This document shows positions 25,796 to 30,659 of a stretch of 37,605 bases of DNA, one piece after another (position 1 is the stretch's first letter; each line of letters opens with the position of its first letter). This DNA comes from a virus, in UHGV virus genome UHGV-0180039. The stretch is one strand, 5' to 3'. The translations under genes were made by a program, and so were the position numbers. The notes under the pieces are model-generated. The model did no database searches and was not told the DNA's origin. It saw only the letters and a program-made list of their open reading frames with translations.

Positions 25796-26656
25796 TCACC
25801 TGTCGAAAAACACGTAGCCAGTTTTCGATACGGTGATTGCGGATGATGGTTTGGATTGTGGTTGAATAGTTTCTGGCTTCTCGTCGTTCCAGCGTTGACC
25901 GTTCAGGTAGCTCGATGGTAACAACCTGTCGAATCCGAACTGCTTACCATTCCTGCATGCGATGTCTTCTGCCAGCATCGTGGCAAACTCTCTTGCCGTA
26001 CCCCTGGTAGTTTTACGCCATTCCCTGAACTGTGTTCTGAATGCCGAAGCTGCGTTTTTCTTCCCGGCTTTCCGCATGCCTGCACACCAGAATATTTCCT
26101 CGAATGCCTTGTCGGTTTCTTCGTGACGGTCATGTGATTTTTCACACTCCGTCCGAACACTTTCGGACATAGTGTTTTTATTATTTCTTTTTTCTTTTGT
26201 AATAGTTTCTTTTGTGTGTCCCTGTTTTGGTGACAGCGCTGTCACCGTTTTGGTGACACTTTTTGTCACCAATGCAGTGACATTATCACCAGAGTAGTGA
26301 CACCCTTCTATTTGCCATTCCTCGATGTTCTTGTTAGGCCCGATTTGCTGGCCTTCGCGAAGGATAACCTTCATCGCGATAAGCTCATTCTTGGCCTTAT
26401 TTACCTTCTGTCTTGGCAGCCTGGTAATTTGAGCTAACTGACTATCAGAGATGCGATCCATCTTTTTACCGTAGCCGTATGTTTTACGGCATATGGCGTG
26501 GGCAACCTTGCTCTGATTTTTCGTTAAATCTGCGCCGATAAGCTCTTCATACAGGGCATTTGCAAGACGGGTATAACCATCTTCAACTTCTGCCACACGA
26601 CGCTCCACAGGCCGTTGTGAAGGCCTTAAATGTGTTACGGTTGCAAGATTACTCAT
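25796..26656 (-). CDS. O: Replication initiator, lambda O-like
   Basis: 286 aa; N-terminal region ([22 protein letters not shown]...[25 protein letters not shown]...GPNKNIEEW) resembles the lambda O DNA-binding domain; the origin repeats lie inside the gene. C-terminal domain not confidently assigned. Confidence 0.8.
26170..26305. repeat. Replication origin inside the O gene: four dyad-symmetric iterons plus an adjacent AT-rich region
   Basis: GGTGACAGCGCTGTCACC (perfect palindrome), GGTGACACTTTTTGTCACC, AGTGACATTATCACC, AGTGACACCC at about 26228-26303; AT-rich TTTTTATTATTTCTTTTTTCTTTTGTAATAGTTTCTTTTGTG at about 26174-26216. Confidence 0.65.
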
Positions 26657-26827
26657 GACCTTTCTCCTTCTGCATCAGCTTCACTTTTTCCAACTCAGCC
26701 CGGAATCGACCAGGCTGCTTGAAGCTGGACAGGAAGCGATCACGTAGTATGTGTTTGTGAATTTTGTCCTGGTAAGGACTGAGTTGTTTTGTCATAATGA
26801 CTCCTGTTGATAGATCCAGTAATGACC

Positions 26828-27121
26828 TCAGAACTCCATCTGGATTTGTTCAGAACGCTCGGTTGCCGCCGGGCGTTTTTTATTGGTGAGAATCGAAGCA
26901 ACTTGTCGTGCCAATCGAGCCATATCGTCGTCAACGACGCCCCATTCAAGAACAGCAAGCAGCATTGAGAACTTTGGAATCCAATCCCTCTTCCACCTGC
27001 TGATCTGCGACTTATCAACTCCCACAGCTTCCGCTGTCTTCTCAGTTCCAAGCATTGCGATTTTGTTAAGCAACGCACTCTCGATTCTTAGAGCCTCGTT
27101 GCGTTTGTTTGCACGAACCAT
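26828..27121 (-). CDS. cII: Transcriptional activator cII (lambda type)
   Basis: From the internal [100 protein letters not shown], near-identical to lambda cII. The 126-aa track ORF is an upstream extension across nutR. Confidence 0.9.
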
Positions 27122-27139
27122 ATGTAAGTATTTCCTTAA

Positions 27140-27173
27140 CAAATAAGAAGTTATGCGCATCAACTTATGCGCG
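27140..27173 (-). terminator. Possible tR1-like hairpin between nutR and cII
   Basis: Palindromic ATGCGCAT arms around a 6-nt loop, followed on the transcript by a U-rich stretch; weak. Confidence 0.3.
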
Positions 27174-27179
27174 TTGTAT

Positions 27180-27223
27180 TCCCGCATTTCTGCGGGAATG
27201 AGGACCATGACTGTTAAAGAGCA
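27180..27223 (-). promoter_or_regulatory. nutR: boxA (UGCUCUUUAACA) plus boxB hairpin (UCCCGCAGAAAUGCGGGA)
   Basis: boxA at 27223..27212 starts 6 nt after the cro stop; 14-nt spacer; 18-nt boxB at 27197..27180 with a 7-bp stem and GAAA loop. Confidence 0.6.
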
Positions 27224-27229
27224 ATTTGC

Positions 27230-27415
27230 TTATGCCGCTTTGCGGTAAGCGCTTTCTTGATACTTCAGGGCGCCAGCTGTAACGACTTCCAGTCGATAGG
27301 CGTCTTTCTCTGGGATGACTTCCTTCCACTGAGAGACTGCTGCGTCGCTAATGCCTAACGCTTTAGCTACAGCACGCTGGGTTCCGAAGTGGTCGATAAC
27401 ATCTTTCTTGTACAT
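27230..27415 (-). CDS. cro: Cro repressor (P22 type)
   Basis: 61 aa MYKKDVIDHFGTQRAVAKALGISDAAVSQWKEVIPEKDAYRLE.VTAGALKYQE.AYR.AA, near-identical to P22 Cro from memory. Confidence 0.95.
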   Translation of the reverse strand: MYKKDVIDHFGTQRAVAKALGISDAAVSQWKEVIPEKDAYRLEVVTAGALKYQESAYRKAA

Positions 27416-27429
27416 AGACTCGCTCCGAA

Positions 27430-27495
27430 ATTAAAGAACACTTAAATTACCCACTAAAGGAATCTTAAGTCAAGTTTATTTAAGATGTCTTAACT
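27430..27495. promoter_or_regulatory. OR1-OR2-OR3 operators (P22 c2/cro type), overlapping PR and PRM
   Basis: Three 18-bp dyad sites: ATTAAAGAACACTTAAAT (27430-27447), ACTAAAGGAATCTTAAGT (27453-27470), ATTTAAGATGTCTTAACT (27478-27495). Confidence 0.7.
27445..27473 (-). promoter_or_regulatory. PR promoter for cro
   Basis: Minus-strand TTGACT (27473..27468), 17-nt spacer, GTAATT (27450..27445). Confidence 0.55.
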
Positions 27496-28146
27496 ATGAA
27501 AACTCAATTGATGGGAGAGCGCATTCGCGCTCGGAGAAAAGAACTCAAGATCAGGCAGGCCGCACTTGGAAAGATGGTCGGCGTGTCTAATGTTGCCATA
27601 TCTCAGTGGGAACGCTCTGAGACAGAGCCAAATGGAGAGAATCTTCTCGCCCTGGCTAATGCGTTGAAGTGTTCCCCTGACTATCTGATGAAAGGAGAGG
27701 AAAGTCTTTCAAACATTGCCTATCACAGTAGGCATGATCCAAGAGGGTCATACCCTCTGATTAGCTGGGTGAGCGCAGGATGCTGGATGGAAGCTGTAGA
27801 ACCATATCATAAGCGTGCAATAGATAACTGGTACGATACAACCGTAGACTGTTCAGAAGATTCGTTTTGGTTGGACGTGAAGGGAGACTCAATGACGGCT
27901 CCGGCCGGTCTCAGTATCCCTGAAGGAATGATAATACTCGTCGATCCTGAAGTAGAGCCGCGTAACGGGAAACTGGTAGTTGCAAAGCTCGAAGGAGAAA
28001 ACGAGGCAACTTTCAAGAAGTTAGTTATTGATGCAGGCAGGAAGTTTCTAAAACCACTTAACCCACAATATCCGATGATCGAGATCAACGGAAACTGCAA
28101 AATCATCGGCGTAGTTGTCGATGCAAAACTAGCAAACCTTCCATAA
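27496..28146 (+). CDS. c2: Immunity repressor C2 (P22 type; LexA/S24-like C-terminal domain)
   Basis: 216 aa MKTQLMGERIRARRKELKIRQAALGKMVGVSNVAISQWERSETEPNGENLLAL..., near-identical to P22 c2 from memory; C-terminal Ser/Lys autocleavage-type domain (DVKGDSM ... VAKL). Confidence 0.95.
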   Translation: MKTQLMGERIRARRKELKIRQAALGKMVGVSNVAISQWERSETEPNGENLLALANALKCSPDYLMKGEESLSNIAYHSRHDPRGSYPLISWVSAGCWMEAVEPYHKRAIDNWYDTTVDCSEDSFWLDVKGDSMTAPAGLSIPEGMIILVDPEVEPRNGKLVVAKLEGENEATFKKLVIDAGRKFLKPLNPQYPMIEINGNCKIIGVVVDAKLANLP

Positions 28147-28170
28147 GGGGGCATTCGCCCCCTTTTTTTT
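28147..28170 (+). terminator. Intrinsic terminator directly after c2
   Basis: GGGGGC-ATTC-GCCCCC followed by eight T residues. Confidence 0.75.
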
Positions 28171-28194
28171 ATTTCCTTTAAAAATCAAAGCCAA

Positions 28195-28267
28195 ACTTAA
28201 GTTACGAAAGAAAATTTAAGTTTTCTTCAAAAATACTCTTGACCATTAATTAAAGAGATCTTAAATT
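28195..28267 (+). promoter_or_regulatory. OL operators and PL promoter
   Basis: Operator ATTAAAGAGATCTTAAAT (28249-28266) plus weaker upstream half-site matches (ATTTAAG); -35 TTGACC (28239-28244), 17-nt spacer, -10 TAAATT (28262-28267). Confidence 0.55.
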
Positions 28268-28312
28268 TAAGCCATCAGCAGGACGCTGGAAGCCAAACGG
28301 AACAGATTGGCA

Positions 28313-28354
28313 GGCTCTTTAACATTGATGGGATTGTCCCGCCGAAATGCGGGA
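28313..28354 (+). promoter_or_regulatory. nutL: boxA (GGCUCUUUAACA) plus boxB hairpin (UCCCGCCGAAAUGCGGGA)
   Basis: boxA 28313-28324, 12-nt spacer, boxB 28337-28354; boxB differs from the nutR boxB at one position. Confidence 0.6.
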
Positions 28355-28755
28355 ACCAAAGAGTAGTTGGCTTTGGGATTGGATGAATGAGCAGGCTGAT
28401 GCTCGACCAATGTATAAACAGCGCTCATGGCAAGCAGTAACCAATCTGCGCCTCAAGACAGCGTCACTGGTAGTGCGGGCGCTCTAACCAGTAAGCCGGA
28501 GTTCAGCACCGGCCATCCAATCGCCAAAGTCAATTCCATAGGCGTTATGCAGCCGCCACCATATTCAAGAAAGCTGCACAAGAGGTAGGAGGATTTATGT
28601 GAATACTTACATTCAATTGAGAGGTTAATTAAATAGAACTGATCGAGCAGAGTCCATAAAGGCTCATAAATGCTCTTCCATCCCCGTCTAATTGGCGGGG
28701 AAGGAAACCACTTTGTAATAAAAAAAATTCCAAAGTTGTTTCATCGGAGGTCAAC

Positions 28756-29055
28756 ATGACAGTAGTCATTACATATCTGGCTGACGATAACGCCAGAAAT
28801 CGCCGCAGAGCACGCAGACAGGCTCAACGTGAACAGGCAATGCAAGAGCAGCGACTGGCGCGAAAAATTGCGCTAAAGCTCTCTGGTTGCGTCAGAGCAG
28901 ATAAAGCAGCATCACTCGGAAGCCTTTGCTGCAAGAAGGCAGATGAAGTCGAGCGTAAACAGAACCGTATTTACTACCGCAAGCCACGCAGTGAAATGGG
29001 TGTGACTTGTGTTGGTCGCCAGAAAATGAAATTAGGCAGCAAACCACTTATTTGA
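28756..29055 (+). CDS. N: Antiterminator N (phage 21/lambda-like C-terminus, distinct arginine-rich N-terminus)
   Basis: 99 aa; arginine-rich motif DDNARNRRRARRQAQREQ at the N-terminus; C-terminal ...RKIALKLSGCVRADKAASLGSL.CKKADEVERKQNRIYY.KPRSEMGVTCVGRQKMKLGSKPLI resembles phage 21 N from memory; SD GGAGG upstream. Confidence 0.85.
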   Translation: MTVVITYLADDNARNRRRARRQAQREQAMQEQRLARKIALKLSGCVRADKAASLGSLCCKKADEVERKQNRIYYRKPRSEMGVTCVGRQKMKLGSKPLI

Positions 29056-29063
29056 GGTGAGAT

Positions 29064-29534
29064 ATGACAAAATCATGGAGCGTACCTTTTCCTGAATCAG
29101 AAACTGAACATGATGGAATGCCTGTTTTCTGGAGATTCCAAGCGACAGTTGAAGAAGATGGAATCAAAATATTCGCACTTCAATATATAGCTTTTCATCA
29201 GACAGAGCATTATGCATGGTTGGTTCCTGCGCATTGGATTGTTAATTTTAAACCAGCACCAAATCAGTGGTTACAGGAATGGAAACAAAGGAGAAATAGA
29301 TATGCAATTAAGAAAGTAGCAAAAAATGCAGAAAGATCTTTTGCATTCCCAACGAAGAAACTTGCCATTGAGAGTTTATTGCGCCGGAAGAAATACCATT
29401 TAATGAGAATCAAACAAGATTTGGCTGTTGTATCAACTCTTGTTGATGGGATGAAGAATATTGATACATCAACACCAGATATTGAATATAACTTTGGGCA
29501 CAACCAAGAAACAGAAAATTGGGTATTTTATTAG
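29064..29534 (+). CDS. Hypothetical 156-aa protein; first gene of an AT-rich moron downstream of N
   Basis: ATG with SD GAGGTGA; visibly AT-rich codon usage; no family recognised. Confidence 0.5.
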   Translation: MTKSWSVPFPESETEHDGMPVFWRFQATVEEDGIKIFALQYIAFHQTEHYAWLVPAHWIVNFKPAPNQWLQEWKQRRNRYAIKKVAKNAERSFAFPTKKLAIESLLRRKKYHLMRIKQDLAVVSTLVDGMKNIDTSTPDIEYNFGHNQETENWVFY

Positions 29535-29638
29535 TACGAGTAAGCACTGTGTATTCATTCCAACGAGTGAATACACGGAGCAATGTCGCTCGTAACTAAA
29601 CAGGAGCCGACTTGTTCTGATTATTGGAAATCTTCTTT

Positions 29639-29664
29639 GCCCTCCAGTGTGAGGGCGATTTTTT
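29639..29664 (+). terminator. Intrinsic terminator between the two moron genes
   Basis: GCCCTC-CAGTGT-GAGGGC followed by GATTTTTTAT. Confidence 0.65.
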
Positions 29665-29684
29665 ATCTATGAGGATATGAACAG

Positions 29685-30053
29685 ATGTCAAACATCAAAA
29701 AATATATCATTGATTACGACTGGAAAGCATCAATAGAAATTGAAATCGACCATGACGTAATGACAGAGGAAAAACTTCACCAGATTAATAATTTCTGGTC
29801 AGACTCTGAATGCCGACTCAATAAACACGGCTCTGTATTAAATGCTGTATTAATCATGCTGTCGCAACATGCTCTGCTTATAGCAATTTCAAAAGACCTA
29901 AATGCATATGGTGTTGTTTGTGAGTTCGACTGGAATGATGGAAATGGTCAGGAAGGATGGCCTCCAATGGATGGTAGCGAAGGAATAAGAATTACCGATA
30001 TCGATACATCAGGAATATTTGATCCAGATGATATGACTATCAAAGCCGCCTGA
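29685..30053 (+). CDS. Hypothetical acidic 122-aa protein; second moron gene
   Basis: ATG with SD GAGGA; Asp/Glu-rich; no family recognised. Confidence 0.5.
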   Translation: MSNIKKYIIDYDWKASIEIEIDHDVMTEEKLHQINNFWSDSECRLNKHGSVLNAVLIMLSQHALLIAISKDLNAYGVVCEFDWNDGNGQEGWPPMDGSEGIRITDIDTSGIFDPDDMTIKAA

Positions 30054-30146
30054 GCGCGGCTTTACCGCATACCAATAATGCTTCACGAGAGGTGTTTATT
30101 CATGAGCGTAAACGCTGATTAATGAACGCAGTTGATAGGATATAAA

Positions 30147-30659
30147 ATGGCATTTATAAAGATTCTTGAATTAATTTCCCTAAGTGAGATTAATAATGTT
30201 GTCAAATATAACCCTATTTCTGGTGAGTTCACATGGCTAAAATCTTATGGAGCAAGGAAGATAGGTGGAACTGCCGGAACAATAACAACAAGCGGCTACT
30301 TAAGGATTTTCATTAACGGAAGACACTATGCTGCACATAGACTTGCATGGATTATCACTTTCGGTGTTGAGCCTGAAGGTATTATCGACCATATAAATGG
30401 CATAAAGACAGATAACAGAATTTGCAATCTGAGGCTTGCAACTTACTCACAGAATTCAATGAATAGTAAAATAAACACCCTCAACAAATCAGGTTGCAAA
30501 GGAGTCACATGGAAGAAGGAAAGTAGAAAGTGGGCTGCCTATGGGAAATTAAACGGGAAGAAAAAACATCTAGGGTACTTTAATGAATTAGAAGATGCCA
30601 AAAAAGCTTACTGCGACTTTGCCAGAAAGCATCACGGCGAATTCTACAGGAGCAAATAA
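30147..30659 (+). CDS. HNH homing endonuclease (HNH_3-type motif plus AP2-like DNA-binding domain)
   Basis: Motifs HRLAWIITFG...IDHINGIKTDNRICNLRL and AP2-like GVTWKKESRKWAAYGKLNGKKKHLGYFNELEDAKKAY. Track start 30132 is TTG; ATG at 30147 with an AGGA SD is more likely. Confidence 0.8.
   Translation: MAFIKILELISLSEINNVVKYNPISGEFTWLKSYGARKIGGTAGTITTSGYLRIFINGRHYAAHRLAWIITFGVEPEGIIDHINGIKTDNRICNLRLATYSQNSMNSKINTLNKSGCKGVTWKKESRKWAAYGKLNGKKKHLGYFNELEDAKKAYCDFARKHHGEFYRSK

Follow-up and report, generated by a model that had tools for sequence, protein, structure and literature searches.

A lambda-family N antiterminator gene that probably joins HK620-type nut specificity to a phage 21-type C-terminus

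Where do the parts of the N gene at positions 28756 to 29055 of the viral genome UHGV-0180039 come from, and which boxB does its product recognise? The initial annotation of this gene had described N as chimeric, with a phage 21-like body and a novel arginine-rich motif (ARM) that had been exchanged together with its boxB. We analysed the locus within the whole stretch of 37,605 nucleotides (the window), the features of which are collected in Table 1; for the rest, the window resembles P22 (Lederbergvirus type) and comes from an E. coli phage or prophage. As far as sequence comparison can tell, the gene very probably encodes a lambda-family N antiterminator that was built by recombination from three modules and has the nut specificity of HK620.

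Table 1. Features of the N locus and the adjoining immunity region, with positions in the window
Feature	Position	Strand	Basis or remark
Candidate tR1, hairpin and T-tract after nutR	27155-27172	-	tR1 annotated in HK620
nutR boxB TCCCGC-AGAAAT-GCGGGA, HK620 type	27180-27197	-	17/18 vs HK620
Phage 21-like block, 87% identical	27210-28331		cro, cI, OL/pL, both boxA; blastn
nutR boxA GCTCTTTAA, just downstream of cro	27214-27222	-	matches HK620 nutR annotation
cI repressor	27496-28146	+	Pfam HTH_3 and Peptidase_S24
Terminator	28145-28164		after cI, before pL
pL-like promoter TTGACC-17-TAAATT	28239-28267	+	consensus scan; collinear with annotated pL of HK620 and phage 21
nutL boxA GCTCTTTAA	28314-28322	+	exact boxA match; same place as HK620 nutL and phage 21 boxA-L annotation
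nutL boxB TCCCGCCGAAATGCGGGA (TCCCGC-CGAAAT-GCGGGA), HK620 type	28337-28354	+	identical to annotated HK620 nutL
Long N-leader hairpin	28366-28534 (arms 28366-28385 and 28514-28534)	+	MFE and centroid fold, z -5.2
206-bp insert between leader hairpin and N ribosome-binding site	28535-28740	+	outside nut site
N antiterminator gene	28756-29055	+	ORF list; ATG start; 99 aa plus stop
HK620-type N-terminal module, codons 1-33	28756-28854	+	33/33 identical to HK620 N
Middle segment, codons 34-64 (ARKIALKLSGCVRADKAASLGS...)	28855-28947	+	common to HK620, phage 21 and mEp235 N
Phage 21/lambda-type C-terminal module, codons 65-99	28948-29052	+	33/35 identical to phage 21 N
Candidate tL1, intrinsic-terminator-like	29637-29658	+	terminator scan; downstream of N and next ORF; role as N target inferred

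The ORF, whose 99 codons translate as MTVVITYLADDNARNRRRARRQAQREQAMQEQRLARKIALKLSGCVRADKAASLGSLCCKKADEVERKQNRIYYRKPRSEMGVTCVGRQKMKLGSKPLI, follows a GGAGG ribosome-binding site at 28746-28750. On the minus strand lie cII and cro, and on the plus strand there follow cI, a terminator, pL, nutL and N; around N this order is collinear with HK620, phage 21 and CUS-3, and the cII is lambda-like while the cro ORF matches Pfam P22_Cro. The locus has the characters of a lambda-family N, namely similarity to characterised N proteins (PHROG 271, phage 21 N and the lambda N of PDB 6GOV), the A-x-x-R-x-x-x-R-R signature in the N-terminal ARM, the place of first pL-operon gene adjoining the immunity region, and a boxA-boxB nut site in each of the two early transcripts. 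The match to PHROG 271 ('anti-termination protein N-like') had an E-value of 5e-37, and residues 63-99 aligned to the lambda N C-terminus in the antitermination complex of 6GOV (E 1.6e-4). The Pfam model PF25694 (N_peptide) gave 19 bits (E 0.002) against a gathering score of 27.9; this model was apparently built on lambda-like N, and its gathering score is a cut-off of the database rather than a biological test. No NCBIfam model matched N or its neighbouring ORFs, and the PDB sequence search returned the lambda N tail as its sole match, with no solved relative of the N-terminal module; N is short, and in the free state most of it is unstructured. The function of the protein in RNA binding and antitermination is a prediction from homology and gene context. 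Regarding the neighbours on the downstream side, a 156-aa ORF directly after N (29064-29534) has no Pfam or NCBIfam match and is common to phage vB_EcoP-611R6, a DUF2528 protein lies at 29685-30053 in the early left operon region, and a 175-aa ORF of the early left operon (30132-30659, plus strand) has HNH_3 and AP2 domains and is homing-endonuclease-like.

We aligned N with the N proteins of phage 21 (OL657228 / lambda imm21), HK620 and vB_EcoP-611R6 and counted the identities by segment. Over residues 1-33 all positions are identical to HK620 N (AAK28866) and only 6 of the 33 to phage 21 N (UMO75464, likewise of 99 aa). Residues 34-64 are close to both, with 28/31 identities to HK620 and 29/31 to phage 21, and over residues 65-99 the identity to phage 21 N continues whereas HK620 is unrelated, as it has a P22/H-19B-type tail (CSGSICLPNVAIYAAGYRKSKQLTAR; ...CLPNVAIYAAGYRKSKQLTAR) where the window has a 21/lambda-type one. 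The first 64 residues are therefore shared with HK620 at 61 positions, and residues 34-99 with phage 21 at 62 of 66, so that the description of a phage 21-like body under a different N-terminal ARM was accurate. At the DNA level, the blastn blocks were 28741-28947, 98.6% identical to HK620, and 28854-29066, which begins at N codon 33 and is 97.7% identical to phage 21, while 28741-28853 had no similarity to phage 21 detectable by blastn. The two blocks overlap at 28854-28947 only, which is the shared middle segment, and this patch is the likely site of the crossover as judged from the alignments. Since the homology steps are abrupt, in blocks and not in gradients, chance resemblance and ordinary divergence are ruled out. 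By analogy with lambda N, the NusA-binding region would correspond to residues 34-64, and residues 65-99 would then form the region binding RNA polymerase; a three-region organisation of N, for RNA, NusA and RNA polymerase, is described in PMC3526286.

The ARM peptide DDNARNRRRARRQAQREQ occupies residues 10-27 (28783-28836) and is the same motif that the initial annotation had quoted as novel. The novelty does not hold, because the HK620 record (AF335538), which carries these residues unchanged, annotated N, nutL and nutR already in 2001. When nine N proteins representing four ARM classes were aligned, A13, R16, R20 and R21 were invariant. As the A-x-x-R-x-x-x-R-R signature is shared by all four classes, the motif counts as an ordinary N ARM. 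The phage 21 ARM is GTAKSRYKARRAELIAERR, and neither the residues nor the DNA of the N-terminal module correspond to it.

Both nut sites agree with this assignment to the HK620 class of N specificity. The nutL of the window (28314-28354) is base-for-base that of HK620, with 18 of 18 boxB positions identical, and the nutR boxB has a single difference, C to A at the first loop base (27191); boxA and the spacer up to boxB are as in HK620. The initial annotation had itself named, as an outcome that would speak against its reading, an N-terminus matching a known N with the boxB of this locus, and HK620 is such a case, with an identical boxB in nutL and one base off in nutR. Two boxB copies were found in the window against 0.01 expected by chance. 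For the nutL boxB, which lies 400 nt upstream of the N start, the predicted fold has a G+C-rich stem of 6 bp and a loop of 6 nt (-10.5 kcal/mol); in nutR the C-to-A change allows the program to fold a stem of 9 bp around a GAAA tetraloop (-14.8 kcal/mol, z -5.9). Both boxB hairpins of phage 21 are different, being annotated as TCTCAAC-CTAACC-GTTGAGA in nutL and TCACC-TCTAACCG-GGTGA in nutR, and the phage 21 class of specificity therefore fails on its boxB as well as on its ARM. The claim that the ARM had been exchanged together with boxB is borne out in this sense, as both nut sites carry the boxB that fits the ARM and not that of phage 21. A search of 26500-30000 against Rfam, with E-values of up to 1 allowed, was negative, so that neither the nut sites nor the leader are represented by a curated RNA family.

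The variant base in nutR deserves a separate comment. The first loop base reads C (CGAAAT) in HK620 and in all of the approximately 340 nut sites counted in the comparison loci. The A variant had 0 matches in IMG/VR, was absent from 5,426 complete E. coli genomes (best match 140/141), and had in GTDB a single match (L211), which lacks a boxA and has nothing but the 25-nt hairpin in common with the window. A mutation private to this sequence, or else a sequencing error, accounts for the A at 27191. The change would replace the C.U mismatch that closes the loop by an A-U pair; we considered it as support for an A-U/C.U closing pair and rejected it, since the variant is private and hence uninformative. 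Stem covariation was also sought in HK620-type boxBs, which are almost invariant, and the divergent nutR copies were too few for a statistical case. In three such diverged nutR boxBs, from HK620-class phages (L099, L137 and L175), the loop CGAAAT is kept, a mismatch C.A or C.C occurs at the same stem pair, and there is also one compensatory change from G-C to A-U. The mismatch may be a tolerated or even a functional bulge.

The linkage between ARM and boxB was examined in two independent samples of loci. The first one comprised the best 80 of 346 IMG/VR loci, chosen by N similarity, with boxB sought within 800 nt upstream. An HK620-type boxB was present in 78 of the 79 loci having upstream DNA, and in the exception (L057), a rearranged prophage, unrelated DNA abuts the N ribosome-binding site. 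The second sample comprised 120 loci chosen by the boxB pattern alone; an N with an HK620-class ARM lay downstream in 93 of them by pattern search, and additionally in L099 and L190 by tblastn. The other loci were truncated, contained only a nutR fragment followed by cII, or had a hairpin that lacked boxA. The C-termini in this sample were about half P22/H-19B-type and half 21-type, with an invariant ARM core. In L099 and L137, whose N has diverged to about 50% identity, the core A-R/K-N-R-R-R-A/E-R-R and the nut-site loop CGAAAU are both kept.

The annotated phages that we compared give the same pattern. Phage 21 has ARM, boxB and tail of its own type, and mEp235 and mEpX1 have a 21-type ARM and boxB with a tail of a third type. 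The 21-type tail is joined to a P22-type ARM with boxB GCGCTGACAAAGCGC in SH2026Stx1, to a lambda-type ARM with boxB GCCCTGAAGAAGGGC in HK544, and to the HK620-type ARM and boxB in the window and CUS-3, while HK620 itself carries this ARM and boxB with its P22/H-19B-type tail. In these phages boxB always goes with the ARM and never with the tail, and the 21-type tail is found with four ARM classes (21, HK620, P22 and lambda), each of them with its own boxB. Modular exchange in which the ARM is linked to boxB is therefore well supported at the sequence level. The N of SH2026Stx1, of the P22 gp24 type, is another natural ARM swap on a 21-type body; it shares with the window N the tail and an MTVxV-type N-terminal leader, and differs in its ARM (GNAKTRRHERRRKLAIERD) and its boxB.

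The closest relatives of the locus are CUS-3, IME10, Gally, vB_EcoP-611R6 and N7, which have the same chimeric architecture and nut sites. Full-length protein matches of 93-97% identity were obtained in 611R6, IME10 and N7, with 97% in both 611R6 and IME10, and DNA matches to N in CUS-3, Gally and IME10. The CUS-3 N (ABQ88425) is identical at 96 of 99 residues, the substitutions being at C58, D63 and R67. Its immunity region is 99% identical over 26832-28377, and the 206-bp leader insert is also present in CUS-3. The interior of the leader hairpin in the window differs from that of CUS-3, and the nutR loop base is private to the window.

The comparison with lambda N (P03045) is more distant. 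The C-terminal 37 residues are homologous and the middle region is unrelated, and the ARM shares with lambda the core xRRRxRR in addition to the signature mentioned above. The lambda boxB loops, GAAAA and GAAGA, like that of the window contain GAAA, whereas lambda has a GNRA-like pentaloop on a U-A pair and the window has C-GAAA-U on a C-G closing pair. In lambda N the residues that contact the loop are K14, Q15 and W18, and these have no equivalents in the window N.

If the protein works as lambda and phage 21 N do, the pL and pR transcripts would carry boxA and the HK620-type boxB (nutL 28314-28354; nutR 27222-27180, minus strand), the ARM helix would bind the boxB loop and stem on the nascent RNA, and the host NusB/NusE would bind boxA. 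The middle region of N would dock on NusA and the C-terminal region on RNA polymerase, and the polymerase so modified would read through downstream terminators, for which the candidates are 27155-27172 (minus strand) and 29637-29658. Given that the ARM-boxB pair is the HK620 one, N should act on nut sites of HK620 type and not on those of phage 21. The HK620-type boxB, with its G+C-rich stem and the loop C-GAAA-U, differs from the boxBs that have been studied. In the literature searched, from which the genome papers of HK620 and CUS-3 were absent, no work on this ARM-boxB pair was found, and the pair appears to be biochemically unstudied. We tentatively propose, as a reading that has nearly as much for it as against it, that the HK620-type pair, with its core A-R/K-N-R-R-R-A/E-R-R and its loop C-GAAA-U, is a fourth N specificity class, orthogonal to lambda, P22 and phage 21 N, in which the peptide recognises, in place of a lambda/P22 pentaloop with an extruded base, a genuine GAAA tetraloop on a closing C.U pair (A-U in the window nutR). 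On this reading the half of the ARM that binds the stem (xRRRxRR) would resemble that of lambda and the half that reads the loop would differ.

From the nutL boxB to N the leader measures 400 nt, versus about 110 nt in HK620, and from boxA to the ATG 442 nt versus 148 nt. The long leader hairpin has conserved outer arms (GGCTTTGGG...CCAAAGTC), and its inner arms show compensatory differences among the window, HK620, phage 21 and HK544, the latter with a lambda-type leader. The lambda N leader has an RNase III stem, and by analogy this hairpin looks like its counterpart. The hairpin interior is itself mosaic, being 611R6-like in the window and different in CUS-3, and it is hypervariable among IMG/VR prophages with the same N (L181, L067, L016/L051), where one contig contains an extended tandem array of (GTCAC)n and other contigs contain poly-C runs adjoining a GGGAGTTAACCTCCC hairpin. 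In L025, L013, L038 and L156, also with the same N, there is an extra insertion directly after the nutL boxB (…GCGGGAAC/TGAGT…GAGTGTGAGT/CAAAGAG), which makes the segment from boxB to the leader hairpin another insertion hotspot.

Regarding the 206-bp insert, it is absent from HK620, phage 21 and 611R6, and among 50,697 phage records it was found only in CUS-3 (99%) and HK140 (73%). It contains a hairpin at 28676-28706 with a boxA-like GCTCTT immediately 5' of it, and in its place HK140-type leaders have a different, equally stable stem. The insert may alter the control of N translation, so that the control of N expression may differ from that of HK620. We also considered a 29-codon upstream ORF (28670-28759) that overlaps the N start by ATGA and might be translationally coupled to it, and rejected it because neither frame nor start is conserved in CUS-3/HK140.

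Several other readings of the locus have to be weighed against recombination from known modules. That the hairpin at 28676-28706 is the boxB recognised by this ARM is very improbable. It is stable (-20.8 kcal/mol, z -4.2), some stem is kept there in HK140-type leaders and the GCTCTT precedes it; nevertheless, HK620 and 611R6 have the same ARM without the insert, 53 contigs with the short HK620-type leader also have no such hairpin, the spacer between the boxA-like motif and the stem is zero, nutR has no counterpart, and canonical nut sites are already present at both expected positions. The initial annotation had mentioned an unusual boxB; if the hairpin in the insert was meant, it is not the nut site, the real nutL boxB being the one at 28337-28354. 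A new RNA-recognition motif paired with a new boxB is what one could expect from an ARM that differs from the textbook lambda, P22 and phage 21 ones, lacks a solved-structure match in the PDB and goes without discussion in the searched literature. However, the HK620 deposit of 2001 with its annotated nut sites, together with the occurrence of the identical motif in over 150 viral contigs and in E. coli genomes by the hundred, makes this the least credible of all the readings. We give hardly more credit to the idea that ordinary point mutation, and not recombination, turned the N-terminus of a phage 21-type N into the present one while boxB changed to compensate. All ARM classes share the signature and a hydrophobic MTVxV-like leader and so are ultimately homologous, but the similarity to phage 21 DNA jumps from undetectable to 97.7% at one point, the 5' segment is almost that of HK620, and the same ARM sits on an unrelated C-terminus in HK620.

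A different matter is the direction of the exchange. Instead of an ARM and boxB moving into a phage 21-like genome, a backbone with HK620-type nutR...nutL-N may have gained a 21-like immunity block (cro-cI-pL, between the two boxAs) and, separately, a 21-type N tail, in which case no unit of ARM plus boxB moved. We regard this history as a real possibility, although on balance we lean against it. The immunity region of the window is unlike that of HK620, whereas phage 21 shares with it the related cro-cI, the boxA and the pL-proximal leader. The 21-like block extends exactly from boxA-R to boxA-L, starting at the former, stopping about 9 nt past the latter and falling short of each boxB. Furthermore, its 87% identity to phage 21 against 97.7% in the N tail suggests separate events, at least two; the distance between nutR and nutL is 1.1 kb, so that a single pair of crossovers across the immunity region accounts for the retention of both boxBs; and the CUS-3 record annotates the interval from pL to N as 'boundary sequence'. 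However, either direction gives the same product and the same linkage of ARM and boxB, and the present-day sequences fit both. Whichever way modular recombination proceeded, the limits of the blocks suggest that the conserved boxA elements and the conserved N middle act as recombination joints. We infer that boxA is conserved by the binding of host NusB/NusE, which bind it according to PMC2800207 and PMC3177189.

The chimeric allele is already known, since it is the N of CUS-3-like P22-type prophages and is present in public phage genomes. Among the 5,426 complete E. coli genomes, 292 have the chimeric N, one of them with 100% identity, when a match over at least 80% of the N gene is required; neither parental type alone reaches this coverage, since the part of HK620 type spans 64% of the gene and that of phage 21 type 67%. 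In IMG/VR we confirmed 346 N relatives, and the best 80 of the 346 are all the same chimera, with 96-100% identity. The PGAP label of N was 'hypothetical protein' in all 20 E. coli RefSeq hits listed. With this label in RefSeq, no NCBIfam model and a Pfam score below the cut-off, a gene present in hundreds of genomes is systematically under-annotated.

In lambdoid phages a mosaic N gene is textbook knowledge, and as a discovery this one carries little weight. If the fourth specificity class is true, the HK620-type pair would offer a ready-made fourth orthogonal peptide-RNA tether, extending the lambda/P22/phage 21 toolbox, and also a natural case for testing how ARM helices acquire a new loop specificity and keep the half that binds the stem. 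Regarding the family as a whole, the locus belongs to a natural experiment in which one body is found on four heads, and the HK620 head on two unrelated tails with an unchanged boxB. This is comparative evidence that the specificity lies in the first ~30 residues of N, and that boxA and the conserved N middle are the joints at which these modules recombine.
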